The notes: generated from the sequence alone by a model not told the origin. Positions 6,320 through 24,951 are shown, numbered from the stretch's first letter. The stretch: 52,162 bases of DNA from a virus (IMGVR_UViG_3300043449_000682:1-52162); one strand, 5' to 3'. A program made the numbers and translations.

Positions 6320-6363
6320 ATAACCATTATACACTATGAGTAGATATGAAGTATAATTGATGA

Positions 6364-7537: not shown

Positions 7538-8035
7538 CTAGACGGGCAATATCGGTTGATATTCCTGATTTGCCCATTTCCTTAAATTACATAGTCCGTG
7601 TGCTGGTCTTACATTTTCTAGAGTATCTGAGCCACCCTTTGCAATAGGAACAAGATGATCGATATGCAAACCTTGCTCCCATCCATCAACCCCACATTTT
7701 CGGGGAGCCATAAAGTCAATGGCTAATCCACATAGGTAGCAATCAGTCCCATAAGAAGCAATAACCTGTAGTTCATTATAGTCGTTCGTAATCTTTGCTC
7801 TGCGTCGTCTGCTTTTAGATCGCTCTCGCTCTCTCACCTTATCAAGGTTTGAAGCACGATACTTGGCGGTTACATGAGCACGATTATTTTTGGCATATCG
7901 TAATCTATTATAGACACTTGATGCAGCCAAACACTCTATGCATGGTTTAGTCTTCTGGTTATGGTGTTTGCGATAGCCAGCATAGGTTCCACAGTTGGCA
8001 TATAGCCTATTGTCTATGTCGTTTTTTGTTTCCAT
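7538..8035 (-). CDS. HNH endonuclease
   Basis: CYLCG..HIDHLVPIAKGGSDTLENVRPAHGLCN. Confidence 0.92.
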   Translation of the reverse strand: METKNDIDNRLYANCGTYAGYRKHHNQKTKPCIECLAASSVYNRLRYAKNNRAHVTAKYRASNLDKVRERERSKSRRRRAKITNDYNELQVIASYGTDCYLCGLAIDFMAPRKCGVDGWEQGLHIDHLVPIAKGGSDTLENVRPAHGLCNLRKWANQEYQPILPV

Positions 8036-8118: not shown

Positions 8119-8325
8119 TCAGTATCCATTTAGGCACTCATTTCTTGTATGATATAGTCGAATCTTGGTCATTGTCTTTTTGTTTGGGGCATACAATTCT
8201 TCACCACAACAGGCAGTCTTAAGATACCACTCCTTAGCAAAGAAGTCATATATAAGACCCTTAGCGTCAGAGTATTTCTTGGCTACAAAGGTTTGAAATG
8301 GGTCTGGTATTTCCATATTGATCAT
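8119..8325 (-). CDS. hypothetical protein
   Basis: ORF with upstream TTGACA..GATACT promoter-like sequence. Confidence 0.6.
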   Translation of the reverse strand: MINMEIPDPFQTFVAKKYSDAKGLIYDFFAKEWYLKTACCGEELYAPNKKTMTKIRLYHTRNECLNGY

Positions 8326-8361
8326 AGATTAAGTATCCCACATTGGCCAAAGCATGTCAAG

Positions 8362-8389
8362 TGGATAGTTTATACTCATATCCAGGAGT
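8362..8389 (-). ncRNA. repeated H-type pseudoknot motif, copy 1
   Basis: ACTC-CTGGATA-T-GAGT-ATAAAC-TATCCA. Confidence 0.7.
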
Positions 8390-8780
8390 CTCAACCTTTA
8401 CTTTATACACGCTGTTGAGGTAGTCCGTGTCGGTTTTTCGTGGATAGTCACCTACCAAGAAAGGTTGTGAAGGTAATACTCACCATATGGCTTTCGGCTT
8501 CAATACAAGTATAGCGATTATTGCAGATAAAGTCAATAGGGTTAGTCTTCAGGATTAAAATAAGCCATAGCAGACCAGATATCGTTGTAATTATCTAGTT
8601 TGGCTTCTGTTTGATGCTCTTCGATTGTATTATTGTGGGTCATATAATAATTATATCACACACATTAAATCGCTAAAATTTCGGGGGATTTAGAGTGATG
8701 ATCGTAATCCCTAGTATAAGATATAAACCACTATAGGAACATATGCTGGATATGGGGAAATATCCGATGTATCGTAATCT

Positions 8781-8981
8781 TTATTTGCCGTTGGGTTTTA
8801 TAGAGTGTCTGTACTTCCAAACCTTTACACTGAATAAGACCTTTCCTCTGATGACAAACTCAAGTAAGAGATATGTCTTTCGTAATGAACGATCTACTTG
8901 GTACATACGAAAGATACCAGTGCGCTTTAGATATTTAGCCAGATAGTTATATTCCTTTGGACTCAGGTCATCATATATCAT
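8781..8981 (-). CDS. hypothetical protein
   Basis: MIYDDLSPKE... start directly after TGCTATACT extended -10. Confidence 0.45.
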   Translation of the reverse strand: MIYDDLSPKEYNYLAKYLKRTGIFRMYQVDRSLRKTYLLLEFVIRGKVLFSVKVWKYRHSIKPNGK

Positions 8982-8999
8982 GTACTTAGTATAGCAGGA

Positions 9000-9303
9000 A
9001 GTTATCCACAGGGCAAGGTGCTTGGATACCTTAAAATGGATCAAAATAAGGTGTTAGGATACCTTGGTTTGTTAGGCTTTGAATTAAAGTAAATGGCGTT
9101 TTACTTTAAAATAGAGAAATCTTTTAAAGTTTTGGACATAGTTATCCACAGGCTAGTCTCTAAATAGTTCGATTATCCCCCAAGTTATCGCTATGGCTGA
9201 TATGCCAATCATAGCGTAAACCCAGTAGATATACATTGTTGCAAAGTCCATTTGGTCATGATATCATGGTTTTGAATCATAGTTATCCACAGGTTTATCC
9301 ACA
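9000..9303 (+). promoter_or_regulatory. DnaA-box cluster (4 perfect TTATCCACA)
   Basis: 9002-9010, 9142-9150, 9283-9291, 9295-9303. Confidence 0.7.
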
Positions 9304-9425
9304 GATTAATCTTACTGATTATATATTTAGACATTCTAGAAGTGGAGCGATGTGGAGGATAGTGGAGCATAGAGCATATCATAGAAGGGGCGTAATGTCA
9401 AGCGGGGTTTTGAGGACTCTATCAC

Positions 9426-10030
9426 AAACCTCAAACCTTGTCAAACCTCAAACCTCATAGCCCCGATTTGGATGATATCACAGTTATAGTGGTTTGTCAA
9501 ACCTTAAGACCCTATAAAAAAATCCCCTAAAACTAGGGGAAAATTTGCTCATATCGTAATCTTTTTTAATAAAACTATTATGGTTTTTCTAGAAACCAAG
9601 AAGAAATGGTTTGTTATTCTATAGGGGGTAGAAGTTATATGGTTTGGTCTTGATCCCCTGGGATTTCGCCTGGGGCGAATCGGCCTTCGGCCTGATCAAG
9701 TTTAGGGCCCCTGTAAAAATCGGGGGTAAATGAAAAGAAAGGTGACAAACCTATAGCATGTGTAACAGTAACAAAGGTATTCCACATAGAGTCAGAGAAA
9801 GCCCTATATTCTTTTGGCTGTGCTTTTGCATATTGAGCAAAATGATCTCTTCCCATATTTATATTATAACATGGTTTGACAAACCTTGGTTTTCATGATA
9901 TAAGGTTTGGGGATATAAGGTTTGGATCGTAATCTTCTGGAGGGGGAAGGTTTTGGAGGTTCGTAATGTCTGAGGTTGGGGATTTTTTGGATAGGATCGT
10001 AATGTCTTTTGGAAATGAGGTTTGTGGTTT
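9426..10030. repeat. strand-asymmetric AAACCT/AGGTTT repeats, TCGTAA repeats and two GGTTTGWCAAACC palindromes
   Basis: AAACCT at 9426, 9433, 9443, 9450, 9499; AGGTTT at 9903, 9918, 9948, 10018; palindromes 9491-9503 and 9873-9885. Confidence 0.65.
9635..9856 (-). CDS. hypothetical protein
   Basis: ORF with TGTTATAAT just upstream of ATG. Confidence 0.45.
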   Translation of the reverse strand: MGRDHFAQYAKAQPKEYRAFSDSMWNTFVTVTHAIGLSPFFSFTPDFYRGPKLDQAEGRFAPGEIPGDQDQTI

Positions 10031-10078
10031 GTTACAAAAGAGTTTCCGGCCCCCTCGTGAGAGGGGTAGAGACAGAGA

Positions 10079-10351
10079 TTACTCTGTTGCCTCTATCGCC
10101 TCAAACAAGTCCTGCAAGTCGTCAAACCCTGCATCCTCAAAGTTCAACGCTTCCAACAACAAGTCCCATGTCTCATTGATGTATTGCTCAACTGTTGGAG
10201 TCAGATTGATAATTCCTTCTGCATAGCAAAATGCAAGAGGAATCCCGATGTCGTTGTATGCAAAGAAATCTGCCATTTCGTCATCATCTTTATGGTGCAT
10301 CCATACCTGTCCAAGAATTAAAGCCTTGCTTTCAAATGTTGTTGTGGGCAT
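10079..10351 (-). CDS. acidic hypothetical protein
   Basis: SD (GAAGG) and overlap with upstream gene. Confidence 0.75.
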   Translation of the reverse strand: MPTTTFESKALILGQVWMHHKDDDEMADFFAYNDIGIPLAFCYAEGIINLTPTVEQYINETWDLLLEALNFEDAGFDDLQDLFEAIEATE

Positions 10352-10538
10352 AATTTGTACCTTCCTTAGTTTCTTTGGCTGATTCTGCTATTGTCTGTAA
10401 ACGATTATACACTACATAAGGTTGAGACTTGGCTAGGTATTCCCCGACCAATTCTAAATCTACACGAAGGTCAGAAATAATGTTACCCATTTTATTAGCA
10501 ACTTTTTCTTCCTCCGTGATTTGTCTGCTCATACGCAT
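10332..10538 (-). CDS. hypothetical protein
   Basis: SD GGGAG upstream. Confidence 0.7.
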   Translation of the reverse strand: MRMSRQITEEEKVANKMGNIISDLRVDLELVGEYLAKSQPYVVYNRLQTIAESAKETKEGTNYAHNNI

Positions 10539-10632
10539 AGTTTCTCCCTTGTATCAATTGTATCAAAAAGTGGGGGAAAGAGCAAGCCCCACGCTTGCCC
10601 CCTCCACCCGATTAGCCTAGGTGACCCAATAC

Positions 10633-10980
10633 CTAGACTAGCGCTGGGCTATAAGCAGCCACAAATTTATCGAAAGCCACTGAAACATTATCAGTGATAG
10701 TATTGTTAGTGAAGTCAATGAGGATGGTTTGTTCGCCTAGGTCATAGCCATCATTATCAATAGCGTAGATTCCAAACCCTGTTTCCTCTAGAATGCTATC
10801 TTGAATAAGATAACTAATAATCATGCGGGTCCCATAGGATGAGTCTGATAGTCTAGGCTTAGCATGTTGAAGTGCCATTGCCAGGTCCCGCTGCCATTCC
10901 GTCTGGCCCCAGTGACTGTATAGAACTACCATTGGGCCCTGCTCACTGTCTTTAAATACAAAGTTGATCCGTGCTCCCAT
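10633..10980 (-). CDS. hypothetical phage protein
   Basis: Stop/start coupling; LYSHWG motif. Confidence 0.75.
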   Translation of the reverse strand: MGARINFVFKDSEQGPMVVLYSHWGQTEWQRDLAMALQHAKPRLSDSSYGTRMIISYLIQDSILEETGFGIYAIDNDGYDLGEQTILIDFTNNTITDNVSVAFDKFVAAYSPALV

Positions 10981-11318
10981 TAGTCTTGCTCCTCATTCAT
11001 GTCGCCCTCAAAGTCAATAACTACTTTAGTAACTCTGCCGTCCTCGTTCATCTGAACATAGACAGGGTAGTATCCGTCGCCATAGCCTGTGCTAAACACA
11101 ACAGCAGAACCCCTAGCGAGTTCGCCATAGGCGTTTTCAATTGTCGTGGCTGAAGCACCTTGATATGTGTAAGTGCCTACTTTACCTTCTAAGTTCCACT
11201 CGACGCCTTCGTCTGTTTTCCATTGGTCAAGATAGCAGGGGTCACCCACCATTGCTTGTCCTGAGTCTACCGAAAAGTATCCTGCGGTGATAAGATTATC
11301 TACTACATATTGGGTCAT
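10980..11318 (-). CDS. DUF4241-like protein
   Basis: VDSGQ..GDPCY and STGYGDGYYPV motifs. Confidence 0.6.
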   Translation of the reverse strand: MTQYVVDNLITAGYFSVDSGQAMVGDPCYLDQWKTDEGVEWNLEGKVGTYTYQGASATTIENAYGELARGSAVVFSTGYGDGYYPVYVQMNEDGRVTKVVIDFEGDMNEEQD

Positions 11319-11767
11319 TATTTTTCCGTTCCTGTTGGGGTAATTTCTTCTTGTTCTAATTTTAGCATTTCTTCCTCAGTAATGCAAATTGGGCAACGCT
11401 CATGCTCATAGTATCTTTCATTAATTAGTTGGCCATCATCTTCAATCTCAGCCCCGCAACCTTCGCAGTAGTACCAATATGAAGATACCTTAACTTGAAT
11501 AGTAGTATTATCAGGGAAAGGAACCTCAGTGATAAAGTATCCTATTCGATTAACAAATCCCCAGCCAGACCAGATGTAAGACCCACCATCGTCCCCATCG
11601 CCATACATCCAGATATGTTTTTCATTAGACTGTTTAACAAACTCATACTCATCGCCATAAGTTTCAAACATTAAACCATCGAATGAGGCATTAGTGTCTA
11701 TATGATTAGTGATTGGCTTGTAGGTCTTAACGAAGTCGTCAAAGTCCATCTCAATAAATGTATCCAT
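11318..11767 (-). CDS. hypothetical protein with C-terminal CxxC..CxxC
   Basis: Upstream TTGACA-17-TATACT promoter. Confidence 0.75.
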   Translation of the reverse strand: MDTFIEMDFDDFVKTYKPITNHIDTNASFDGLMFETYGDEYEFVKQSNEKHIWMYGDGDDGGSYIWSGWGFVNRIGYFITEVPFPDNTTIQVKVSSYWYYCEGCGAEIEDDGQLINERYYEHERCPICITEEEMLKLEQEEITPTGTEK

Positions 11768-11966
11768 GTGGGGTATCTTTCTATTAGGGTATATCTAAGT
11801 ATAACGGGTTGGGGCTAATCTGTCAACTTCATACGGATAATGTCATAGGCATCGATGGCTCCCGCCGTATAGTCGTCCATCTCATAGTCACCCTCACCCT
11901 GATACTCATCACGCAGTAGGGTTAGTTCTTCAATACGCCCTTCAACAAACGCTAACAGATCGATAC

Positions 11967-12248
11967 TCATTCTCCTGCCTCCTTAGCACTAATAGCAAAC
12001 GATAGGTCATATGTTAGTTTATACATGTGTACATAAGCGTCTAGAATACCCTCTGCATACTTACGCTCTATAGATAGCATAGCGTCTGAGTAGTCGTCTG
12101 CTTCTTCTTGTTTAACTAATTCATCATACTCTTGCTCAGCAATGAGGATTTGATTCTTTAGTTCACCGTGCATGATATCAAGACCTGATACTCCTGCCTT
12201 GACCATACGCTCTAGGTGTGGGTCTATCTTGTCTGCTGATTCTTTCAT
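11967..12248 (-). CDS. hypothetical protein
   Basis: AAAGGAG SD and upstream promoter. Confidence 0.75.
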   Translation of the reverse strand: MKESADKIDPHLERMVKAGVSGLDIMHGELKNQILIAEQEYDELVKQEEADDYSDAMLSIERKYAEGILDAYVHMYKLTYDLSFAISAKEAGE

Positions 12249-12271
12249 AGGGTCTCCTTTGTTATTTATTA

Positions 12272-12293
12272 AGTATATCTTGGGCTACTGACA
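12272..12293 (-). promoter_or_regulatory. PafBC/RecA-NDp-type promoter
   Basis: TGTCAG-N10-TATACT. Confidence 0.65.
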
Positions 12294-12428
12294 AAATATG
12301 GCGGGATGTCTCAATCTCTGCCTGCTTAAGTCTATAGAAATGATAAGCATTAACATAGTCAATCTTCTCTAGGTCTTGATGAAGGCTAACGAGATGTATC
12401 TTTATATATTCAATTAACTCATCAAACA

Positions 12429-12614
12429 TTAGTCTTCTGTCTCCCCGTCTTCGTCCTCATCTTCTTCTGGTTGCTCATCAACTCTAATAGAATAAACCTC
12501 ACCTGAGTAGGAATAGTCTTCATAGTGCCAGCCTAGTTCTTCTGCTTCTTGTGCGTTCTCTGCTTCTACCTCGTAGTTATACTCTACGATTACTTTGATA
12601 TCATATGTTGGCAT
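12429..12614 (-). CDS. small acidic protein
   Basis: GAGGTGG SD; YEVEAENAQEA motif. Confidence 0.7.
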   Translation of the reverse strand: MPTYDIKVIVEYNYEVEAENAQEAEELGWHYEDYSYSGEVYSIRVDEQPEEDEDEDGETED

Positions 12615-12771
12615 TTATGCCACCACCTCTGTAATAGTTAGCCAAGTGGTGCAGTACTTACAGTGCTCCATTTTTAGCGGGGAAGTAACAGAATGAGTAC
12701 TATCTATAATATCCTCAATCTTATCTAATACATCATCTAGAGTCATTGATGAATCTCCTTTTCCTTATATA

Positions 12772-12984
12772 TTAATTATAGGGGTTGGTGTTGATTTTTA
12801 CAACTTCTGGGGATGTGATGTTAGTCACAGTCTCCTGGACAGTGGCATCTTCCCATCCTAACAGGATCAGTTCATTAGGATAATCACACACACAGGTAGG
12901 GGTGTTCTTAAAATCCTGGGTAGTGACCTCAAAGAGGGTATCGCAGTGGGTACAGATAAGATTATACTTAAGCCAGTTAGTCAT
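12772..12984 (-). CDS. Cys-containing hypothetical protein
   Basis: CTHC..CVC, coupled to upstream gene. Confidence 0.6.
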   Translation of the reverse strand: MTNWLKYNLICTHCDTLFEVTTQDFKNTPTCVCDYPNELILLGWEDATVQETVTNITSPEVVKINTNPYN

Positions 12985-13163
12985 TAGAGCCTTCCTTCTA
13001 AATTAACAGATTCACATTCAGCACAAGTGCCATTGGATACATCATCATACCAGTCAGTCTCTACATCTAGCAAGTTGCCCTGATCATCATAAACACCCAA
13101 TTTATGAGATGTTTCGTCATACCAAAACTTACTGGTTTGACCACAGTCTAAACACTTAGGCAT
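12984..13163 (-). CDS. small zinc-ribbon protein
   Basis: CLDC..CAEC; start re-assigned to MPKC. Confidence 0.65.
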   Translation of the reverse strand: MPKCLDCGQTSKFWYDETSHKLGVYDDQGNLLDVETDWYDDVSNGTCAECESVNLEGRL

Positions 13164-13512
13164 TATTCCCCCAATGTAGCATAATAAGCCACATGGCTTG
13201 GTGCAGGGTACAGTCACATTCTCCACCATTCATGTTTTCCATGAAGTCAAAGTGAGAGTAGTTATCCTCATAGATAGAGGTTACGAGTTCGTCGATAGTA
13301 TAGGGTTTATATTTTGTTTGGGTCATATATCAATTATACGCCCATAACCTGGGAAATGTCAACTCTATCGTAAAGAATTTTTGGTTTGACATTTTTAGGG
13401 GAAAAGGTTTGTCTATCGTAATTTAATTTAACATTGACATTTTTATGTCCAAATTGCCCTATTTGTCCTGCCGGAAAAATTTTATGCATTGCAGTGCATA
13501 TTTATTTACTTG

Positions 13513-13586
13513 CGATCCGTACGGGACTTGAACCCGTGACCTCTACCGTGACAGGGTAGCGAACTAACCAACTATTCTAACGGACC
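13513..13586 (-). tRNA. trnD: tRNA-Asp (GTC)
   Basis: GGTCCGT/ACGGATC acceptor, CTACC-CTGTCAC-GGTAG anticodon arm, GGTTCAAGTCC T-arm. Confidence 0.93.
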
Positions 13587-13590
13587 ATGC

Positions 13591-13617
13591 GAGCAGTTTT
13601 AAATCGTGCTCAGGATT
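13591..13617 (-). ncRNA. repeated H-type pseudoknot motif, copy 2
   Basis: AATC-CTGAGCA-C-GATT-TAAAAC-TGCTC, 4 nt before tRNA-Asp. Confidence 0.75.
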
Positions 13618-13631
13618 AATTGTATCAGATG

Positions 13632-14654
13632 CTATGCGAGTTGCATAACATTCTGCACAACTTTCAGCAAACGATTTTTTTCTGCGTTAATTGCAGGGTC
13701 AAATCCTGATGCTGATGCAAGGATAGATTCGTTAGAACCACCACGAGCAGAGCGGTACCAGTCAAGGCGTTCAGTAAGAGCGTTAAATGCACCCCAAGCA
13801 GAACCAGCAATCATGCCATTAAACTCACCTGTGTAGATGTCGTTAATGGTGTCGATTTTGTTTTCCCACTTCTTGAGTGCGCCCTTAGCATCTTTCTCAG
13901 GCTTTGGGTATGCAGCGAGAATGATGTCATTGAAAGACTTAGCATTGACTTCCTTCTCGAACATAGCCTTAGCCATGATGTCGAACTCGTCCATGTAAGC
14001 ATTAGCAAGACCAAGAGTCTCACGAGCAATCTGCACCTTGCCTGATGCAGTCTGAGTGTGGCGAATCTTGAAAGATTGCTTGATGCCCTTATTCTTCTTA
14101 CGACCTACGCCACCAAGAGCAAGGTTAAGAGTGTTAGCGCATACAACACGAACAGGGGTAATAGATGCCTGAATAGCAATAGAACCGTCGTGTGATGTGT
14201 TGATGAGCAAATAAGTTTTTACCTTATCTGCAACACCGCTAGGGTCAAGAACAGTTTCACGCTCTAGTGCAAGAGAGCCGAATACTACACGACCACCCTT
14301 GATTGAGCCAGCAGTTTCCCAACGACCTCCGCCGTCAAGAATGTTGTCACCGAATGAGAATAAATCTTCATTCTGCATTACATGGTAACGCTCACCAACG
14401 ACACCAAGAATGTCGGTCTGCGTGTTGTCAGTAGGATTGGTACGCAATACATACTGATAGTTTTTATCGCTTGTGAGATGTGAGGGGGTTTCCAAATCTT
14501 CCAGACGAACATTCCAACCATTAAGATTAGCAGCAGCCAACATTTCTGATGTGGTTTTTTCTTCTGTAAATACGGTACCCAATCCATGCCAAGCGGGTTC
14601 ACGGAATGATGCAAATGATGCAACGCCGTTTTGTGTTTCGAGGTCATGTGCCAT
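13632..14654 (-). CDS. DUF932 (phage/plasmid TIGR03299-like) protein
   Basis: MAH..REPAWHGLG, GVVGERYHVMQN, ETAGSIKGG, NTSHDGS, TPVRVVCANTL. Confidence 0.9.
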   Translation of the reverse strand: MAHDLETQNGVASFASFREPAWHGLGTVFTEEKTTSEMLAAANLNGWNVRLEDLETPSHLTSDKNYQYVLRTNPTDNTQTDILGVVGERYHVMQNEDLFSFGDNILDGGGRWETAGSIKGGRVVFGSLALERETVLDPSGVADKVKTYLLINTSHDGSIAIQASITPVRVVCANTLNLALGGVGRKKNKGIKQSFKIRHTQTASGKVQIARETLGLANAYMDEFDIMAKAMFEKEVNAKSFNDIILAAYPKPEKDAKGALKKWENKIDTINDIYTGEFNGMIAGSAWGAFNALTERLDWYRSARGGSNESILASASGFDPAINAEKNRLLKVVQNVMQLA

Positions 14655-14685
14655 GAGTTTTCTCCTTTTTGTTGTTGATAATTTA

Positions 14686-14707
14686 AGTATACATGGGGGG
14701 TCTGACA
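14686..14707 (-). promoter_or_regulatory. PafBC/RecA-NDp-type promoter
   Basis: TGTCAG-N10-TATACT upstream of DUF932. Confidence 0.65.
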
Positions 14708-14840
14708 AATGCAAATCGGGATAGTTAGATATGGTATAAATCGGACATTTTTACGGGGTGTCGTAAATCACATCGTAAACATCAGCGTGTCCGCTTGACA
14801 AGATCAAAAAAGGGGCCGGAAAAATTTTGGGAATAAAAAG

Positions 14841-14870
14841 TGAGCAGTTTACATGGCCATGCTCAGGGCC
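14841..14870 (-). ncRNA. repeated H-type pseudoknot motif, copy 3 (degenerate copy adjacent at 14874-14901)
   Basis: GGCC-CTGAGCA-T-GGCC-ATGTAAAC-TGCTCA. Confidence 0.75.
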
Positions 14871-14916
14871 CTCATCCAGTTTAAAGACATTTGACAGGTC
14901 TATTAGTAGCCCCCTA

Positions 14917-15348
14917 CTAAAAATCAATTCTGTCTACACTGGCGGTAAGCCAAGTGATGTTATCAGAATTATATGAAACTGATTCAAAGTCAACATCGTT
15001 AACAATTGATTCTACATCTTCATCGTATGGAACCTGAAGTGTTAGGTTATAGGTGACTGAGACTTCGACTTCAACTTCCTTAGTAAGTTCAAAGCCCATT
15101 ATCTCTGCAATGTCTGTTGCTTGACTTTCTGTAATTGCATCACGCTCTAGTTCTGCCAAGGTCCAGTGCTGCATTCCTTCAACCATACGGTTACGGTCCG
15201 CTGAATCTGAATATGAGCGCTGAGTTACTTTTTGAATCTGTTCTTCTAACTGAGCAATCCGCTGGTCCTTCTGCACAATCTGAGTCTTAAGAAATTCCTC
15301 TGTTGCGTTTACTACGCCTGCAAGTGTTGATAGGTTCTGCTGGTCCAT
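14917..15348 (-). CDS. hypothetical coiled-coil protein
   Basis: SD GAAAGAGG, upstream promoter. Confidence 0.8.
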   Translation of the reverse strand: MDQQNLSTLAGVVNATEEFLKTQIVQKDQRIAQLEEQIQKVTQRSYSDSADRNRMVEGMQHWTLAELERDAITESQATDIAEIMGFELTKEVEVEVSVTYNLTLQVPYDEDVESIVNDVDFESVSYNSDNITWLTASVDRIDF

Positions 15349-15378
15349 GGGGGCCTCTTTCTGTTGTTGTTTATATTA

Positions 15379-15408
15379 ATTATACTCGTGGCCACTGACA
15401 ATTGTCAA
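15379..15408 (-). promoter_or_regulatory. dual promoter (TTGACA-18-TATAAT overlapping TGTCAG-N10-TATAAT)
   Basis: TTGACAATTGTCAGTGGCCACGAGTATAAT. Confidence 0.7.
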
Positions 15409-15421
15409 GGACCCTTGCGGG

Positions 15422-15447
15422 AGGCAGTTTTGGCTCTTACCTAGGAG
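15422..15447 (-). ncRNA. repeated H-type pseudoknot motif, copy 4
   Basis: CTC-CTAGGTA-A-GAG-CCAAAAC-TGCCT (compensatory changes in stem 2). Confidence 0.65.
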
Positions 15448-15561
15448 GTCTGCTTCTTTGGGGCTGCAGTACCCCTGCTCTATAGTATTTCTGTGATCGC
15501 CCTAATCAGCCTGGCGAAGTCTCCACTCTATTTATTTAGCCACGCATTTCTGTGGTCGTGG

Positions 15562-15589
15562 TGAGCCTTTTCCCTTCATGCTCAGGAAG
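15562..15589 (-). ncRNA. repeated H-type pseudoknot motif, copy 5
   Basis: CTTC-CTGAGCA-T-GAAG-GGAAAA-GGCTCA. Confidence 0.7.
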
Positions 15590-15610
15590 TATTATTCTCG
15601 TTATTGAGAA

Positions 15611-16027
15611 TTATAGGTATTGTGCGATAGACTTCATAGTTGAGGCATTTACTGTTTCCTCATCTGTCATTCGCAAAATAGATAGTGCGTTAGTGATTTC
15701 CTGCTTCATGTTCTTGTATTCCCACTCTGCAAGTCGCTCATGCTCACGCTGAGGCTCTTGTGGGAAGTCTGCGCCTGTTGTATCAACATCAAAGTCAATG
15801 TTGAGTGTGTTAGCCCATGTGCGGTGATTTGTGCGGAAGTTAGAAGCCTTCTTGATGTTAGCAATAGCGTAGTCAGTTAGAGCCTTACGATACTTCTCGT
15901 ATTCCTTCTGATACTTTGCTTCTACTTTTTCCTGATTTGCCATTTGTGTTTCAAGTGTAGCCAACTTAGTTTCAAGTGCCTTGATAACCTTTGGTGTTGC
16001 TACCTTAACTGTGATTGCTCTTGCCAT
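15611..16027 (-). CDS. hypothetical protein
   Basis: Start re-assigned to MARAIT after AAAGGAAA SD. Confidence 0.8.
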   Translation of the reverse strand: MARAITVKVATPKVIKALETKLATLETQMANQEKVEAKYQKEYEKYRKALTDYAIANIKKASNFRTNHRTWANTLNIDFDVDTTGADFPQEPQREHERLAEWEYKNMKQEITNALSILRMTDEETVNASTMKSIAQYL

Positions 16028-16061
16028 GTGGGTCGTTTCCTTTTCTGTTAGGGGGTTAGGT

Positions 16062-16089
16062 TGAGCAGTTTTCATTCATGCTCAGGAAT
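16062..16089 (-). ncRNA. repeated H-type pseudoknot motif, copy 6
   Basis: ATTC-CTGAGCA-T-GAAT-GAAAAC-TGCTCA. Confidence 0.75.
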
Positions 16090-16100
16090 AACTATTTAGA

Positions 16101-16265
16101 CTACTTAGCCGTCCAAGTTGTGTAGCGTGATGAACCATTTACATCTAACTTAACACGAACATTACCATTAGCCTGTGGGTTAATCTCGGTAATGATACCT
16201 GTAACCTTTGACTTCTGTGTTGTGAAAGTGTCGCCTACCTTGTATGTTGCTGTTGCTACTGCCAT
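16101..16265 (-). CDS. small SH3/KOW-like protein
   Basis: YKVGDTFTTQKSKVTG; start re-assigned to MAVAT. Confidence 0.7.
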   Translation of the reverse strand: MAVATATYKVGDTFTTQKSKVTGIITEINPQANGNVRVKLDVNGSSRYTTWTAK

Positions 16266-16388
16266 TTGTTTATTTCCTTTTCTGTTAGGGGTTTTTCTGT
16301 ATGTATTAAGTGTAACATTTTTTCTGACATTTTCCAAATCCATTTACTAATAATCTCAAAATGTGAGACATTATTAGTGTGATTTAGG

Positions 16389-16559
16389 TCACTTGCTTGT
16401 CTTGACCATAGCGAAGCGGTGTGCGCCATTTGCAAGTTGCAATGAAACTCTAGTTAGTTTAGAATTGATTGGTGTAAAGTTTTTAATTCGTCCTGTTACA
16501 CCTGTCTTGCTTGTTGTGAATAGGTCACCGATTTGGTAAGTGTATCCGTGAAGTGTCAT
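16389..16559 (-). CDS. small SH3/KOW-like protein (tandem paralog)
   Basis: YQIGDLFTTSKTGVTG; start re-assigned to MTLHG. Confidence 0.7.
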   Translation of the reverse strand: MTLHGYTYQIGDLFTTSKTGVTGRIKNFTPINSKLTRVSLQLANGAHRFAMVKTSK

Positions 16560-16793
16560 TTGGGTCTTGCCTTTCGTTGTGGGGGTTAATTGCTTATAGT
16601 ATAAGTCTAACAGAAAAATGTCAGAAATACCAATTCTAAGGGGGTTTTTGGGTGTGTCCTTAATCACATCTTAAAGGCGTGTCCAAACTTGACAAATCAA
16701 AAAAAATCTCCGGCCCTTTCGGGATCATTGAATAAGAAATATAAAAAACAATAACCAAAATAAAAATATTATTTGAAGTGAATTCACTCTAAC

Positions 16794-17525
16794 TCATTTC
16801 TTAGTCGCAGAGAATACGACATCACTCTTAGAGTATACACAAAGTGAACAAGAAACGCAAGCAGAGCCTGCATTGCTAATTAATGGAATGCGTTTTGCAT
16901 TTTCAGGACACTTAGCGCCAGGTTTATTTGTTAACGCTTTCATGTCTGCCTGGCCCTCTGCAAAATTCTTAGCAAGGTATGCTAATTTAATTCCATGCTC
17001 AGTTTTTAGACCAATTCCAATTGCTTTGTTTTCACTATCAGTGGAATAATATAAAGATAGATTAGGCTGGTCCTTAAGCATAAGCGCTGCAGATTCTACA
17101 CGAGTGTATACCCAAAATTGTACAAAACGATAATCCATGATTACTTGCTTCCAGGCATATGCATATGTATCGCTAAAGAAATCTCCGTCCCAGTGGATAC
17201 GGAATAGCAATGGTGCGTCTTTCTTTGCACAATCTTTAATAAAATCTACGATCATTTCCTTAAGTAGGATGACCATAGTTTCATAGTCTGCGTCTTTGAG
17301 TAGGTCCCAGTTATGGAGTAGGTTAGTCTTTACTCCTGGGAATATCTTTTCCAATTTACCTGCATAGCAAACAGTCTCGCAGACAGTCGTTGCGCCAGGA
17401 CATGAATAGTTCTTTCCTGCGGGTAGTCCGAAAGTGTTTGCGATACTTGCTTGCTTTCCATTAGGTGTGACAAGGTTAGCCACCTTTCTATCTTTAGAGC
17501 GCAGTAGTTTAGCAGTCAAGGCCAA
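16794..17525 (-). CDS. gene product 88 (GP88)-like, radical-SAM-like Cys-cluster protein
   Basis: SCPGAT.VC..VCYA, FRIHWDGDF, FWVYTR, C-terminal CVSCSLC. Confidence 0.75.
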   Translation of the reverse strand: MALTAKLLRSKDRKVANLVTPNGKQASIANTFGLPAGKNYSCPGATTVCETVCYAGKLEKIFPGVKTNLLHNWDLLKDADYETMVILLKEMIVDFIKDCAKKDAPLLFRIHWDGDFFSDTYAYAWKQVIMDYRFVQFWVYTRVESAALMLKDQPNLSLYYSTDSENKAIGIGLKTEHGIKLAYLAKNFAEGQADMKALTNKPGAKCPENAKRIPLISNAGSACVSCSLCVYSKSDVVFSATKK

Positions 17526-17721
17526 GGCTCATTTCTAACGCAATGTCTTCGTTGTATGTTGCAGACATTTCTTCCAATAGGCAATGGGTGCACATTTCTT
17601 CAACCTCATCGACAGAGTTTTCTTTGCATGAGGGGCAAGTAGTTTCATAGTATTCATCTAGGTATTCATCGTTTTCGAATGTCATGGGGGCACGACCTTT
17701 CTTAGTTGTTGTTATATTTTA

Positions 17722-17743
17722 AGTGTAGCATTTCTGACTGACA
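17722..17743 (-). promoter_or_regulatory. PafBC/RecA-NDp-type promoter
   Basis: TGTCAG-N10-TACACT. Confidence 0.6.
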
Positions 17744-17892
17744 TTTTCTACCCTTGCGAGTATATTTCTTTTTAGAAGGCACGGCAGAGGCAGCGTTGCT
17801 ACGGCGTAGTTCCATAAGCCTGCGTAATTCCTCTGGTGTTTTCTTCATATAATAATCTTAGCACACTAGGGAAAAAATATCAACTTCTTAAA

Positions 17893-17908
17893 TGTGACAA
17901 ATCTCACA
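17893..17908. promoter_or_regulatory. CRP-type box
   Basis: TGTGA-CAAATC-TCACA. Confidence 0.7.
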
Positions 17909-17974
17909 CTAATCACGACACGCCCGAACGAGCCGGAAATTTTTGTGCGGGGAAGCACACAAAAACTTTTTAAA

Positions 17975-18220
17975 CTATTCTTCTTCTTCTTCAATAAAAA
18001 CATATAACGGAATTGAATCAGTGTAACTATACTGTGTGACTTCTCTTTCACCGAATTCGTTTTCTGTTTGTATGTCGTAGTTATCTCCTGTTGAATCACT
18101 TTCAATAAAAGTAACTTCAACTATGTCGTCACCAATTTTAATTAAATCACCAAGCATTAGTTGGTCTGGTGTTAAATCATCTGCGTGGATCAATTCCATA
18201 GTTTCCATTGTATCAGACAT
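17975..18220 (-). CDS. acidic hypothetical protein
   Basis: GGAGG SD, abuts upstream gene. Confidence 0.7.
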   Translation of the reverse strand: MSDTMETMELIHADDLTPDQLMLGDLIKIGDDIVEVTFIESDSTGDNYDIQTENEFGEREVTQYSYTDSIPLYVFIEEEEE

Positions 18221-18505
18221 TTAGTCCTCCCAATCAGGTAGCCAGAATGATAAGTGATGCTGTTCAACAATCGCACTTGCAGGGGCTTGAGTTTCTCCAC
18301 GATAGAGAATCTGAAAGTCACCAACCTTTGGCATATCAATCATGCGCTGATAGTCTTCGTCATAGTAGGCGTCGATGGCTTCGATGCATGGCGTTACCAT
18401 TTCTGCGGGGACTGGAGGATAGTGATTACCCTTTAAGTGATAAAGAATCTGAGTCTCAAGGTCCAATACTGTATCCTGAATTCCTAATGCTGTTACTGCT
18501 CCCAT
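18221..18505 (-). CDS. hypothetical phage protein
   Basis: HLKGNHYPPVP motif; start re-assigned to MGAVT. Confidence 0.75.
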   Translation of the reverse strand: MGAVTALGIQDTVLDLETQILYHLKGNHYPPVPAEMVTPCIEAIDAYYDEDYQRMIDMPKVGDFQILYRGETQAPASAIVEQHHLSFWLPDWED

Positions 18506-18720
18506 TATGCAACCACCTTTACTGTTCCGTTTCGATAAAATAACTTGGTGTAACACTTGCCTGTTGGCGTGTGCAGATTAACTGTGCGATATTCTTTAGC
18601 CATTCCCCAATCGGTGAATAGAAAGAAGTTCTCCCATGCGCCATATTCTTTTTCATAGCGTTGTGTCCAATGAGGGGCTTCGCCGTCATAGGCACTTGTG
18701 ATTACATATTCATAGTCCAT
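18505..18720 (-). CDS. hypothetical protein
   Basis: SD GAGG and coupling. Confidence 0.7.
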   Translation of the reverse strand: MDYEYVITSAYDGEAPHWTQRYEKEYGAWENFFLFTDWGMAKEYRTVNLHTPTGKCYTKLFYRNGTVKVVA

Positions 18721-19029
18721 TAGTTAGCCTCTTTCGTTGTAAATAGTGCGCCTTCATTAAGTAAGCCTAACTCTAAATTAAATAATTCATCGCTATTGGC
18801 TTGTGCTAAGTCTATCCAACCTGCACCATCGTTGTCCATTCTAAAAATCTCAATGTATCCCATTAGTGTTGTTCCTCGCAATCAGTAGAATAATCAAACT
18901 CACAATAGTAGCAACCCATTTGCTCGCCATGCTCTTTGCAGACATAGACAAACTGGCTTTCGTCACAACAAAATTTAATTTCATCTTTAACAAAATAAAA
19001 TTCGTTTTGATCAATGTATTCCTTTATCA

Positions 19030-19230
19030 TTATTCACCAACCTTTACTGCGAGATAGCGGTATGTATCTTTAATTGAATTGTAGGGGCGTACTTGAACGA
19101 AGTATGTATCGCAATCCTTGTACCATACATTATTATTTAATTCAGCGGAGATAATTTCTCCCTGAACAGAGTTAGAGCGATAGGACTTGCCCACTAAGAG
19201 GCTTTCGATAGTATAGACATTTGCTGACAT
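19030..19230 (-). CDS. hypothetical protein
   Basis: GAAAGGTG SD. Confidence 0.7.
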   Translation of the reverse strand: MSANVYTIESLLVGKSYRSNSVQGEIISAELNNNVWYKDCDTYFVQVRPYNSIKDTYRYLAVKVGE

Positions 19231-19262
19231 TAGTTGTCACCTTTCTTTTTCTTGATAATACT

Positions 19263-19284
19263 ATCCTAGCCTATGGGACTGACA
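19263..19284 (-). promoter_or_regulatory. PafBC/RecA-NDp-type promoter
   Basis: TGTCAG-N10-TAGGAT. Confidence 0.6.
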
Positions 19285-19333
19285 TTTCTCTACTTACTAG
19301 GCAGTAATTCCAAACTTTGAGACGCTCAGGCCA

Positions 19334-19349
19334 TGTGATAAGGGTCACA
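19334..19349. promoter_or_regulatory. CRP-type box
   Basis: TGTGA-TAAGGG-TCACA. Confidence 0.7.
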
Positions 19350-19466
19350 CCAAAATGTCCGTTTTGTCTGTCAAATCGACACGCCGTAAACTGTGAAAAT
19401 TTTTCTTTGATCTTAAACATAGTGTTTCCCACACCCTGTGGATAACTTTCAGGGCCGGAAAATTTT

Positions 19467-19494
19467 TGAGCAGTTTTGAATCTTGCTCAGGATC
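19467..19494 (-). ncRNA. repeated H-type pseudoknot motif, copy 7
   Basis: GATC-CTGAGCA-A-GATT-CAAAAC-TGCTCA. Confidence 0.75.
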
Positions 19495-19781
19495 ACAATT
19501 TACTTTTGCAAATCGTTTTTGATTTCTTGCCAATCTTCTTTTAGCATTGGCAACATCATGCGGAATAAAACAAAAACGCTACCAACTAAAAATAGTTGAA
19601 CGATTGTTGTGATTAGTCTATTCATTACAAGCCTCCATAAATTTTTCCATTTTGAAATTTGGGTTATCTTCTGCGAACCAAAACGCAAAGTCATCGATTA
19701 AAATATCTAATCGGCAAGTATCGCCTTTTGAGTGCTTTGAAATAATTTTAGCAACCTCTATGTAGTCTTTGCGAGTCATCA

Positions 19782-20039
19782 TTATGCAACCCCCACCAAT
19801 TCTAGGAACATTTCAGTGCCCCCCTCATTGATTACATAGACTTGCTTTTCAATTGAAGCCCAAGACATATCTTCGATGTCTGGCATTAGTTCATCAATTG
19901 CGTCAGTGTTCATTTTGATAAACTGTTCTTTGATTGCAACAATTTGCGGTAGGTAGCGAGAAGTCTCGGCCACCTTTGAAATAAACTGATAGCCCTTATG
20001 TTCAAAAGGGAAGATAGCGAATGCAACTTTGTTAGTCAT
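19782..20039 (-). CDS. hypothetical protein
   Basis: Start re-assigned to MTNKV (coupled to upstream stop). Confidence 0.7.
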   Translation of the reverse strand: MTNKVAFAIFPFEHKGYQFISKVAETSRYLPQIVAIKEQFIKMNTDAIDELMPDIEDMSWASIEKQVYVINEGGTEMFLELVGVA

Positions 20040-20224
20040 TAGAGAGTAGCCTTTCCACGAAGTGTTCCAGAGATTGAGAGAGCGTCGCAAGACACTTTGA
20101 GAGCAACGCCTACTGGCAACTGCTGAGGATACTGCGAGATGAATTGAGCAACTGCACCCTTTGAAGGAAGTGCGATTGATTTTGTTGAGCCATTGAATGA
20201 CTCTAGTTTGATAATGTAGTTCAT
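20039..20224 (-). CDS. small hypothetical protein (paralog of 22275..22463)
   Basis: GAAAGGTGG SD. Confidence 0.75.
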   Translation of the reverse strand: MNYIIKLESFNGSTKSIALPSKGAVAQFISQYPQQLPVGVALKVSCDALSISGTLRGKATL

Positions 20225-20259
20225 GTTGAACCACCTTTCTTTGTTTGTTTGTATAATTA

Positions 20260-20281
20260 AGTATAGCAGGGGGGTCTGACA
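20260..20281 (-). promoter_or_regulatory. PafBC/RecA-NDp-type promoter
   Basis: TGTCAG-ACCCCCCTGC-TATACT. Confidence 0.65.
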
Positions 20282-20309
20282 AATTGGGCACTTATTCGCT
20301 TAGGCTCAC

Positions 20310-20494
20310 TGTGATACTAGTCACATTTATTTGCTAAGGCTCATTGCTTTATTTAGACATTATTTAATTGTATAAGAGAATCTTATCACAAAAATGTCAA
20401 AAAGTCAAGTCTAAACACGGCGTGTCGTATGTGATTAATCTCACATTGGTTATACACAGCCTGTGGATAACTTTTTGGAGGCCGGAAAAATTTT
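20310..20494. promoter_or_regulatory. composite cassette: CRP boxes (20310, 20430), GGCGTGTC (20419), paired DnaA boxes (20450, 20462), GCCGGAAAAATTTT (20481)
   Basis: Motifs read directly from the sequence. Confidence 0.7.
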
Positions 20495-21194
20495 GCAGAG
20501 TTTTATTTCTGCAAAACTATTTTCTTTATTTAAAATCTTTAAAAATTTCTTCTAAAGTTTTTATTTGCTCATCATTTAGATGATCGATGTTGATTGCATT
20601 TGCAAATCCAAATAAATCTTTTTCCATTTTAGTTTTCCTCAATTTCTATTTCTAAACAATTTGTTTCTAGATTTTTTAGCGGGGTATTGTAGATAAGGTA
20701 AGTTGCCTCATCTTGGTCAACGGCATCAACCTCAACGGCGATTGTATAAATAAACTTAGGCATTAGCCACCTCCTCAATGTGGAAAGCGTCGAACTTAGC
20801 AATTTCATCTTCGCTAAGCGGGTAGAGTGATTTATTTAGAGCAAATACCGCTCTCATCTCATCTTCTGCCTCTACGACATAAGAAATTAGCACATTGTAT
20901 TTAGTCATTATTTGACCTCCTTATAGAGATAGTCCCATGCCTTACGGCACATCAAGATAGATTGGCAATTATCACAACAGATAACACCATGTGGGTTAAG
21001 GTCTACATCATAGACATCAACAGGGGCGGAAGATTTGCCACATACAGAGGCAAGGTTAATAAATGTGCTCATTTATTTAAGTCCTTTCGTTCTTTTGATA
21101 ATTCTTTTATCATTGCATACAGCGCAGATAAGGTGGAAAGTATTTTTAAACCATCGCTCTTTCCATAGTAGCGAATTACATTTAGGACAGGCGC

Positions 21195-21377
21195 TCATTG
21201 AGACACCTTCCAATTTGTCCACATAGGTAGACGCTCTGGGTCGGTATCGTTATACCAACGCTCAATGTTTTGTTCACACACTTCGCAGAATGTGAATTGG
21301 TCATCTCCTACCATAGAGATAGCAGATTTATTAGGGGTGTGTGATTTACACACTTCGATTTTTGTTAGTGTTATCAT
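21195..21377 (-). CDS. small Cys-containing protein
   Basis: GAAAGG SD; FCEVC. Confidence 0.65.
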   Translation of the reverse strand: MITLTKIEVCKSHTPNKSAISMVGDDQFTFCEVCEQNIERWYNDTDPERLPMWTNWKVSQ

Positions 21378-21431
21378 TTTGATAACCTTTCTTTAAGGGG
21401 CTTACTTCTTTTTCAACCTTGTATACATACA

Positions 21432-21665
21432 AGTATAGCAGGGGGGTCTGACATTTTGAGGGGTACAAAACGGACATTTAGGAAATAAGGTATTGTGAAT
21501 CACATCACATTTTTAGGGGAATGATAACAATAGCGTAACAATGCCAAGATCATCGGCGTGTTGACTTGACAAAAAGAGGCCGGAAAAAATGTGGGCTAAA
21601 TCACATTAAAAATGTCCGATTTGTCCGTGTCTAAACTTGACTTTTTGACATTTCTATGCTATACT
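21432..21665. promoter_or_regulatory. divergent promoter region (strand switch)
   Basis: Minus-strand TGTCAG-N10-TATACT 21432-21453; CRP boxes 21494 and 21590; plus-strand TTGACT..TGCTATACT about 21638-21665. Confidence 0.7.
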
Positions 21666-21724
21666 TACAGTATTAAGAAAAATTAAATAAGAACAAATAA
21701 CTACTAAAGAAAGGTGTTCATTAA

Positions 21725-21940
21725 ATGAATACACTAGATAAAAATACAATCAAACACTCTAAGTTCGGTCACCTTGACCTAGAACAGCGTATCCACCTCG
21801 CTGCAACTATGGTTGCTAATGGTGAGGTAGTATCTTTTAGAGGTGCTAGTGCTGAAACCTATCGCAAGGTAGAGGCTCTCGCTAACAAGATTAAGTTAGA
21901 GCGTGAGTTCCCACAGTGCCCATGTGGAGAGTGCGACTAA
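21725..21940 (+). CDS. hypothetical protein
   Basis: GAAAGGTG SD; C-terminal CPCGEC. Confidence 0.75.
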   Translation: MNTLDKNTIKHSKFGHLDLEQRIHLAATMVANGEVVSFRGASAETYRKVEALANKIKLEREFPQCPCGECD

Positions 21941-23998: not shown

Positions 23999-24184
23999 TT
24001 ACTTAAAAACGTCTTTAACTTCTAGATCGTCATAGATCAAATTAAACATATAATGTAGCGCTGGATATTGCGAATCGATATTTTGCAGAATATCTGGCTG
24101 ATTCATTCCAGTTTGTCTCATTAGATTTGTATTATATACATTTACCGTATTAATCATTGTTTCAATAACTTCTTCTTTTGTCAT
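23999..24184 (-). CDS. hypothetical protein
   Basis: ATGA overlap with upstream gene. Confidence 0.6.
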   Translation of the reverse strand: MTKEEVIETMINTVNVYNTNLMRQTGMNQPDILQNIDSQYPALHYMFNLIYDDLEVKDVFK

Positions 24185-24951
24185 ACCCATTCCTTTTCTT
24201 GGTCATATGTAACTGAATACTCTCCAGTGAATATCTCAGCATATGAAATGATATCTCTATTATACCTTATAACGGTTTCTATGCCTACTTTGTCACATAC
24301 ATACTTCGTACCCTGGACTAGTGGCTCAAAACTCATCTCCTGGGCTTCTAGGGCCTTATTAAGGGTATTCAGGTATCTTTCCTTGCCGTATCTTTTAGAA
24401 ACAAATGCTTGATCAACATAATCAAATCTTGCTTGTGCATCATTTCTTTTTGCAATGTCCGAATTGTCTATTATGTACTTTGTTGCAAGATGTTCCATCC
24501 GTGTAGACCAGTTTCGCATGTTGTCGCTGTATTTCTCCATGTTCTTGAGAGTTGAATCAGCGAAAGCCATGCGTATAAGGTCTTGCTCGGAGAGATCAGC
24601 CTCTGTTGCGAACGAAACCAAAAAAGCGGTTGCGAAAGGAAACTTGTCGCTATATGTCGAAACGCCGAAGTGCACATTCGGATTGAACGACTCAACTGAC
24701 ATATTATCTTTTAAGAGTCGCATATGGTTGCCAAGAGATACATACTCTTGTCGATTCATATCGCAGTCGACGAACAAGCATTCTTCTGGATTGATACCGT
24801 CGGCGAGACATAAAATATTTTTATCATATGAACCCACTATTTTCGAACCGTTAAAACGCTCTAATAATTTTGCGGTCATAAAACCATCCATGTCAGGGGA
24901 TATAATTAAATTCTTAGAATACTTCAATGTGTCTAGTATGTCTGTTTTCAT
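24181..24951 (-). CDS. DHH-like phosphoesterase-fold protein
   Basis: IISPDMDG, FVDCD, LGNH motifs. Confidence 0.55.
   Translation of the reverse strand: MKTDILDTLKYSKNLIISPDMDGFMTAKLLERFNGSKIVGSYDKNILCLADGINPEECLFVDCDMNRQEYVSLGNHMRLLKDNMSVESFNPNVHFGVSTYSDKFPFATAFLVSFATEADLSEQDLIRMAFADSTLKNMEKYSDNMRNWSTRMEHLATKYIIDNSDIAKRNDAQARFDYVDQAFVSKRYGKERYLNTLNKALEAQEMSFEPLVQGTKYVCDKVGIETVIRYNRDIISYAEIFTGEYSVTYDQEKEWV

Follow-up and report, generated by a model that had tools for sequence, protein, structure and literature searches.

A restriction-site-like word kept between the early transcription units of a lake phage and its relatives

Introduction

Dyad repeats of unknown function, stoperators and the avoidance of palindromes are all already known from phage genomes, and each offers a comparison for the sites described here. 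These are the eight CCGG sites, below called boxes, in a 52,162-base viral contig (IMGVR_UViG_3300043449_000682), which is referred to throughout as the window. The window derives from a lake phage, has 38.8% G+C and is estimated to be 48% complete; its boxes lie between the small genes of an early, host-takeover-like block.

In the cluster O mycobacteriophages, a 17-bp dyad repeat (5'-TGTTCGGNNNCCGAACA) is present in more than 30 copies, about one-third of them inside genes, and its function is unknown (PMC4351075). As the text of that report describes it, the repeat resembles the boxes in being short and dyad-symmetric about a 3-nucleotide centre, in its many, mostly intergenic copies and in its actinophage setting, and the authors predict a dimeric binder. 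It differs in being genome-wide, in having one sequence in all five phages and in having no tie to terminators or to a terminal repeat; the same text reports neither lineage-specific replacement of a restriction type nor purging of the word. A dyad repeat in many copies is also what is seen with the box words CCGG, ACGT, GACGTC and CCG-SSS-CGG treated below, whereas a constant 17-bp sequence throughout the genome is not: 4-9 bp are conserved, within one block of about 11 kb.

The stoperators of cluster A mycobacteriophages are many short intergenic sites for one phage protein, whose specificity differs among relatives, and they affect transcription from one gene to the next (PMC6550527, PMC9283540, PMC4351075). 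As these accounts present them, they share with the boxes their intergenic position and the differing specificity between related phages, but they are asymmetric, oriented with transcription and genome-wide, and they belong to temperate phages with a known repressor. The boxes, in contrast, have a palindromic core of 4-6 bp, occur in both orientations and are found in the early or terminal-repeat block only. A stoperator is 13 bp long.

Palindrome avoidance in phages extends to T5, whose first-entering DNA has no EcoRI sites. In the family of the window, too, several 4-bp palindromes are missing or rare, in sets that differ by lineage, and in one relative (G016) the purge affects only the early stretch. 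The difference is that here an avoided word is kept at the unit boundaries of a block that is probably the first to enter, opposite to the arrangement in T5. T5 DNA, with terminal repeats of about 10 kb, also carries site-specific nicks. The boxes resemble them as a few defined sites in the DNA of a phage with probable terminal repeats of that order, and differ in that the T5 nicks are in one strand and spread over the whole genome. In the Bacillus phage SPO1, the host-takeover module lies in the terminal redundancy.

The Streptomyces BE phages (Stanwilliamsviridae) have terminal repeats, in BE1 about 11 kb long with 20-25 genes (PMC5764925). Like the early block of the window, these repeats hold 20-26 small genes on one strand in short units, a DUF932/DUF945 gene and the same spacer layout; unlike the family of the window, the BE phages use a single interrupted palindrome, CCG-SSS-CGG, across phages of three host species. 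The main text of the BE1 genome paper (PMC5764925), supplementary files apart, does not mention the box and never uses the words motif, promoter, terminator or intergenic. Supplementary files likewise set aside, we found no description in the literature of one restriction-type word per lineage at the boundaries of a terminal-repeat block, exchanged among relatives and avoided elsewhere.

Results

By exact count, CCGG occurs in the window at 10046, 13471, 14816, 16710, 17933, 19455, 20482 and 21580 and nowhere else in 52 kb, just as an initial annotation of the sequence had listed it. Successive sites are 3425, 1345, 1894, 1223, 1522, 1027 and 1098 bases apart. That annotation had also supposed that composition would predict dozens of sites, and this was borne out: shuffles that preserve dinucleotides give a mean of 43.07 (standard deviation 6.40; at least eight sites in 100 of 100 shuffles), and Markov models give 41.8 (order 1) and 28.4 (order 2). 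The proposal that CCGG is purged genome-wide yet kept at eight sites thus agrees with eight sites seen against about 43 expected. Three further purges, which the annotation did not mention, equal or exceed that of CCGG: AGCT and CGCG are absent (expected 167-230 and 23-26), and ACGT is cut to a third (31 against 87-96). GGCC is not avoided, being near expectation (64 against 78-84). Four palindromes therefore fall far below Markov or shuffle expectation, as in ordinary palindrome avoidance, but the leftover CCGG sites are not scattered without shared context; all eight have a motif and a kind of position in common, and the same is true of other words in relatives.

Each of the eight sites falls between minus-strand genes or transcription units of the ORF (open reading frame) map, between 10.0 and 21.6 kb, and so are intergenic, as had been proposed. 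Two of them are overlapped solely by weak alternative ORFs (13334-13489 and 17866-18120), which are taken as spurious. The extended motif with an A/T tract also stands: TCCGGC is present on one strand at every site, with the tract on the T side, and GGCCGGAAA is exact at five of the eight. The unit is on the minus (gene) strand at six sites and on the plus strand at 10046 and 16710, the two that had been read as reversed. The features are as follows.

9857..21724, minus strand: early, host-takeover-like block of small genes in about 10 short units, including the DUF932 and GP88 genes
10036..10054, plus strand: box 1, unit AAAAGAGTTT-CCGG-CCCCC, inverted relative to the genes; family D12
Directly before box 1, gene strand: hairpin CCCCTC-TCAC-GAGGGG, z -3.0, CCGG unpaired
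13467..13483, minus strand: box 2, AAAATTTTT-CCGG-CAGG; family D6; 8 nucleotides past a small hairpin downstream of tRNA-Asp
14812..14828, minus strand: box 3, AAAATTTTT-CCGG-CCCC; upstream of the DUF932 gene
Either side of box 3: gene-end hairpin GAGCA..TGCTC on one side, TTGTCAAG-GACACGC on the other
16699..16716, plus strand: box 4, unit AAAAAAAATCT-CCGG-CCC, inverted; on the gene strand directly after CCCGAAAGGG; family D12
17930..17944, minus strand: box 5, AAAAATTT-CCGG-CTC; 3 nucleotides past a 13-bp hairpin, z -2.2
19452..19467, minus strand: box 6, AAAAATTTT-CCGG-CCC; family D6; followed by a DnaA-type box TTATCCACA at 19437-19445
20478..20494, minus strand: box 7, AAAATTTTT-CCGG-CCTC; 5 nucleotides past the hairpin TTTTGCAGA..TCTGCAAAA, z -4.0, CCGG unpaired
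20462-20470: DnaA-type box next after box 7
21576..21590, minus strand: box 8, ATTTTTT-CCGG-CCTC; within the divergent control region that heads the early block

At seven of the eight sites, a hairpin or U tract ends 0-8 nucleotides before the box; at 14816 the distance is 22 nucleotides. Shuffled sequences fold less well than the hairpins at 20482, 17933 and 10046, whose z scores are listed above. Across the eight folds, CCGG itself is unpaired or inconsistently paired and belongs to no consistent RNA stem, and an RNA-structure role for it was rejected because the folds use it so inconsistently. The boxes also differ from parts of an intrinsic terminator, being neither its G+C-rich stem nor its U tract: the hairpins precede the box, and the unit is inverted at two of the eight sites. 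The distance from box to promoter element varies in the window, with no fixed value, and five of the eight boxes have a PafBC-type promoter 109-201 nucleotides behind them.

The boxes are confined to the early block, over about 11.5 kb. Window genes from 1 to about 21,400 are on the minus strand, and those from about 21,700 onward are on the plus strand and include genes for tail fibres, ribonucleotide reductase, portal and protease. The spacers of the block have many repeated modules in common and a constant order along the genes: stop codon, terminator-like hairpin, box, regulator sites, promoter. Next behind the box comes a DnaA-type box (TTATCCACA) or TTGTCAAG-GACACGCC; a CRP-type box follows, and last a promoter of either the PafBC or the sigma-70 type. 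These elements are well above expectation. The DnaA-type box occurs six times in the window (0.57 expected) and CRP-type boxes (TGTGA-N6-TCACA with at most one mismatch) 11 times (2.78 expected), nine of them in early spacers between 12814 and 21605. The PafBC (RecA-NDp) promoter pattern TGTCRG-N10-TANNNT occurs nine times on both strands together (0.92 expected); eight of these promoters are on the minus strand, between 12272 and 21453, and three have the identical core TGTCAGACCCCCC. A box is present in eight of about ten large spacers, the spacers at 15349-15610 and 10539-10632 having none.

Relatives were sought with the DUF932 protein (gene at 13632-14654), which detected 381 in viral contigs; 80 loci were kept, and the rule of one word per genome held in the 15 related genomes or loci of this family in which words were counted. 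An exact 15-mer scan of viral contigs gave 72 stretches, which were chance singletons and one unrelated high-G+C contig with two copies, and no relatives. Conservation of the CCGG motif itself among related phages was contradicted: 73 of the 80 loci have no CCGG at all and carry other palindromes at the same positions. The other seven hold 3-10 CCGG sites, spaced as in the window, and in two of them (L130 with seven sites and L097 with eight) all 15 are in the same context, with flanks that vary (CCGGC, CCGGG, CCGGA).

What takes the place of CCGG is seen most directly in L078, the closest relative by DUF932 protein, with 81% DNA identity over the block. Its 10 ACGT (39 expected) include eight that are positional homologues of the eight boxes of the window. 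The site-specific flanks, namely hairpins, DnaA boxes and TTGTCAAG, are kept, and the replaced part is about 10-15 nucleotides only. The orthologue of site 14816 was aligned in 81 sequences, the window and 80 relatives (sets of 16 and 66, with the window in both), and the words found there are CCGG, CACGTG/CACGTC, GACGTC, CTCGG(G/C), CTAG, TCGA, GCCAGCC and a few others. In loci that use other box words, there are 14 CTAG in L153 (67 expected), 10 TCGA in L110 (36 expected) and five GCCAGCC in L105 (0.9 expected). Eight loci with CTAG boxes have 10-22 CTAG and the other 72 have 26-95, in loci whose lengths differ from 7 to 21 kb. The relatives are about 70-83% identical in DNA. The relatives divide by their purges: AGCT is absent from 65 of the 80 loci (L078-L157), and TCGA is absent from 14 relatives, all among the 15 that tolerate AGCT (the exception being L152). 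These two types of purge probably correspond to two host groups with different restriction enzymes.

Complete related genomes show where the word is confined. In G006 (101.5 kb, CCGG type), all seven CCGG are in the first 11.6 kb and none is in 20-100 kb; the five shuffle means add up to about 66. GACGTC lies inside one stretch of about 11 kb at eight of eight sites in G003, eight of eight in G009 and five of five in G013, and is found 0-5 times in the other 13 genomes; a reversed control word is found 42-72 times. CTCGGG is in the early stretch at eight of eight sites in G001 (three forward, five reverse), five of five in G005 and six of eight in G002, and in both orientations. The TCGA-type genome G010 has 10 TCGA in the early stretch; outside it there are 3, 5, 2 and 3 in four 20-kb pieces, where 22-24 are expected per 20 kb, and four in the last piece of 5.1 kb. 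Corresponding counts of TCGA per piece are 9-17 in G006 and 6-21 in G016.

The same arrangement is present, with a fixed word, in cultured Streptomyces phages. The portal protein of the window is 49% identical to that of Streptomyces phages, and this, like the PafBC-type and CRP-type sites, is consistent with an actinobacterial host. The first 12.6 kb of phage Karimac hold 26 small minus-strand genes, one of them DUF945/DUF932, and its spacers have the order UUCG-loop hairpin, about 6 nucleotides, CGCCCCGG(Y), AAAAGATCTTG, TTGAC, TGnTAGACT. The word CGCCCCGG occurs 39 times in the Karimac genome, 38 of these in the two repeat copies, against 0+2 for a control word. Each repeat copy has 14 boxes in one orientation and five in the opposite one, without a change of place in the spacer, and in seven of 11 countable spacers the box ends 47-48 nucleotides before the -10 hexamer. 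CCG-SSS-CGG is found 23 times in Jay2Jay (11+11 in the repeats and one elsewhere), 28 times in Mildred21 (14+14), 38 times in CeilingFan (19+19) and 35 times in Birchlyn, with control words at 0-2. The BE-phage box is confined to the terminal repeats of about 11-12.6 kb, and nearly every spacer there has one.

The early block of the window has small early genes in many short units, and its DUF932 gene and spacer layout are common to Karimac; by these likenesses it is the homologue of the long terminal repeat of the Streptomyces BE phages. We infer that it is also physically a terminal repeat in this phage.

A reader of the box was sought among the gene products. The C5 methylase profile PF00145 had no match in five related phage genomes, the N4/N6 methylase profile PF01555 none above its cut-off in 19, and the profiles RE_TaqI and RE_HpaII none in five, which included TCGA-type and CCGG-type genomes, respectively. 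No DNA-binding domain was recognised in 40 early-block ORFs (among 50 ORFs scanned against Pfam at E 0.001 in the window, that is, in 48% of the genome). In the window, there was no match to the ParB N-terminal-domain protein of Karimac at E 1, nor to the Lsr2-like protein of Karimac. The box core of 4-9 bp is also unlike the 16-bp palindrome of a parS/ParB-type centromere.

Four ORFs were considered as candidate readers and rejected. The HNH gene at 7538-8035, the only one in the window, has matches in three of 19 genomes that are not tied to box type, and the 256-aa (amino acid) ORF at 24181-24951 has matches in seven of 19, again unrelated to box type. The 59-aa ORF at 20629-20808 has matches in none of 25. 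The 332-aa ORF at 1776-2774 (minus strand) belongs to a multi-copy family that is absent from the complete CCGG-type genome. This family, of about 300-340 aa and unknown function, is present in 13 of the 19 genomes, in up to five copies per genome, and absent from six. An integron-like reading of the spacers as cassette sites was dropped, as no recombinase was noticed, though no dedicated test was made.

Several other features of the window were recorded. A gene-end element, CCTGAGCA..(loop)..AAACTGCTC, is present at 14834-14870, 13591-13619, 16063-16091, 19468-19496 and 15562-15596; it is nearly invariant across the 16 and 66 aligned sequences and is probably an RNA pseudoknot. Five tRNA genes (Trp, Gly, Ile-TAT, Met, Asp) lie at 3-485 and 13512-13586 on the minus strand, that for tRNA-Asp being inside the early block and directly upstream of box 2. 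The GP88-family gene at 16794-17483 (minus strand) encodes a conserved, Cys-rich protein with CX7CX3C near the N terminus and CX2CX2C near the C terminus. The atlas clusters closest to it are DUF7227 and, as a lead only, DUF5131 at the low score of 0.76; all are viral and of unknown function.

Just past the early block is a cytochrome P450 gene (22587-23780, plus strand; Pfam E 4.7e-52). Downstream of the block is a group of two sulfotransferase-like and two 2OG-Fe(II) oxygenase-like genes (3352-3894, 6684-7250, 4032-5459 and 5705-6334, all on the minus strand). The 1.3 kb or so at 8300-9660 are almost without credible genes and hold several sigma-70-type promoters, repeats ending in GATCGTAAT and four plus-strand DnaA-type boxes (9002, 9142, 9283, 9295) with a spacing of about 140 bp; this region may represent a replication origin or be close to one end of the genome. 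Freshwater-run contigs of related phages join different spacers, and the joint of 17908 to 13479 has a CTCGGG-type box between its halves. Joints of this kind inside spacers (9800-21800) suggest that early units are shuffled at the spacers. Contigs from four of 24 public runs, all of which consist of contigs, showed no point where DNA molecules start or stop.

Discussion

By sequence comparison, the CCGG sites are one allele of a family-wide boundary box. The box lies at unit boundaries; its word is uniform within a genome, replaced between genomes and scarce elsewhere; and its orientation is irrelevant. The initial annotation had proposed a dedicated role for the CCGG sites, such as protein loading, programmed nicks, staged DNA ejection or methylation-state sensing. 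Their positions support a dedicated role, since these are conserved both in relatives and in cultured Streptomyces phages, but the word CCGG itself is not kept. We conclude that the box is read on duplex DNA, because both orientations occur at the same place in the spacer and because the word is not used in RNA folds. As the CCGG and ACGT lineages have no more than four invariant bases and the flanks vary, the reading resembles that of restriction-modification enzymes and not that of operators.

We therefore favour, tentatively and at somewhat less than even chances, the explanation that a restriction-modification-type activity has in the boxes deliberately kept targets, to be cut or marked; the enzyme, its owner and its purpose are what we infer, and the enzyme more probably comes from the usual host of the lineage than from the phage. 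In favour of it are the purge of the word outside the boxes, the other words at orthologous positions, the purge that goes with the word in CTAG-type loci and in TCGA-type G010, the irrelevance of orientation, and the placement right behind a hairpin. Each CCGG is the invariant core of a box made up of an A/T tract and TCCGGC(C), set on duplex DNA just past the intrinsic terminator of one early unit; the regulator sites and promoter of the following unit come after it. The boxes would be the only targets that the phage tolerates, and deliberately keeps, for an activity that reads a 4-6-bp palindrome. The enzyme would methylate DNA, or cut unmodified DNA, only between units, and no transcription unit would be broken, since cuts fall only there and each unit keeps a promoter and a terminator of its own. 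A cut could then be repaired from the second copy of the repeat.

A number of observations weigh against such an enzyme. Neither the methylase nor the restriction enzyme profiles found a candidate in the related phage genomes; because restriction enzymes often have no recognisable family, a phage enzyme could nonetheless be present. Loss of the word is not always genome-wide: in the complete CTAG-type genome G016 it is regional, a continuous 22-kb early stretch having 10 CTAG at box spacing and the remainder 23-45 per 20 kb. The link between box word and purge is also not exclusive, since TCGA is few in some lineages without TCGA boxes, and 14 relatives have none. GCCAGCC, the box word of one lineage, is not a palindrome. 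The BE phages, from three Streptomyces species, all keep the one box CCG-SSS-CGG, which is no classical restriction site and shows no clear depletion elsewhere; one non-classical box across three host species is easier to reconcile with a conserved phage or host DNA-binding protein than with strain-specific restriction enzymes. Finally, keeping eight cleavable sites seems costly.

A further reading, which we think improbable, is that the boxes are bait, restriction triggering phage counter-defence genes through the PafBC-type promoters. One target of a host enzyme would be kept at every boundary of the first-entering terminal repeat and nowhere else, so that attack on unmodified DNA would cut between units and leave the early units intact. 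The broken ends would be resected to single-stranded DNA, switching on the PafBC-type promoters, which respond to single-stranded DNA as an alarm. The second repeat copy would repair the damage, and the word would change when a lineage meets a new enzyme.

The chief rival to a restriction-modification-type target is a role of the boxes as operators, bound by a dimeric protein that the phage encodes, a possibility to which we give a lesser though real chance. The candidate would be a small, partly Cys-rich early protein, and several small zinc-ribbon-like ORFs do lie within the block; it might act as a roadblock and insulator between tandem units, or else repress or activate the promoter that follows. 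Its specificity would co-evolve with the boxes, as is the case for the repressor and stoperators of cluster A mycobacteriophages. The dyad symmetry suits a dimer, the same spacer layout in distant cultured relatives suggests one homologous reader, and the position of the Karimac box relative to the -10 hexamer is fixed and activator-like. The divergence among relatives leaves time for co-evolution, and a CTAG purge restricted to the early stretch of G016 suits a factor active just during early transcription. Set against this, the four bp that are invariant in the CCGG and ACGT lineages are too few, as the host chromosome would titrate the binder, and a binder leaves unexplained why G010 and G006 have lost the bare word genome-wide. 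In the window the box is at no fixed distance from promoter elements, the early ORFs scanned have no DNA-binding domain, and the four ORFs examined individually do not track box type. If the box needs no reader at all, it could be a passive G+C-rich clamp beside an A/T tract, aiding termination or shielding the promoter and kept uniform by concerted evolution, with palindromes that are incidental. The constant place of this G+C-rich element after a terminator-like hairpin and its flanking A/T tracts fit such a clamp, as do the repeated modules common to the spacers and the recombination inside spacers in related contigs. We nevertheless consider it unlikely: the site-specific flanks are conserved with the orthologue while the box alone is replaced, and the core is exactly palindromic in nearly every lineage, as in GACGTC at eight of eight sites and in the 9-bp interrupted palindrome of the BE phages. 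Moreover, the word kept is not GGCC, which is unavoided, but CCGG, which is avoided and never varies, and a clamp leaves the link between word and purge without explanation.

Programmed single-strand nicks made by a phage nickase, as in T5, and possibly tied to stepwise entry of the DNA, are slightly less probable again. Regular spacing within a probable terminal repeat and the shared orientation of six of the eight units would suit them, and terminal repeats of about 11 kb are common to T5-like genome designs, to judge from the main text of the BE1 report (PMC5764925). However, a palindromic core would be cut in either strand, units are found in both orientations, and the sole HNH gene of the window (7538-8035) has a counterpart of 89% identity in the ACGT-type relative but none in the complete genome of CCGG type. 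Least credible of all, and in effect already contradicted, is that the boxes are chance survivors, without function, of a general purge. CCGG is indeed purged family-wide, but all eight sites share a flanking motif and a kind of position, the orthologous positions carry equally uniform other words, and the 15 CCGG sites of two other relatives all recur in the same context.

Large lytic phages with long terminal repeats begin infection from a block of many tiny units whose organisation is poorly known. The boxes provide a countable rule for it: one restriction-site-like word per lineage at every boundary, with few or no copies in other places. Cultured Streptomyces phages follow the rule too, with a word that is fixed, which makes it tractable at the bench. 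If an enzyme reads the word, this would be a new link between restriction-modification and the organisation of phage genes, and uncultured phages might be matched to host strains by their word; if a phage protein reads it, it would belong to a new and rapidly evolving pair of regulator and operator. In either case, restriction sites that remain in a purged genome call for caution, as they can be functional marks.

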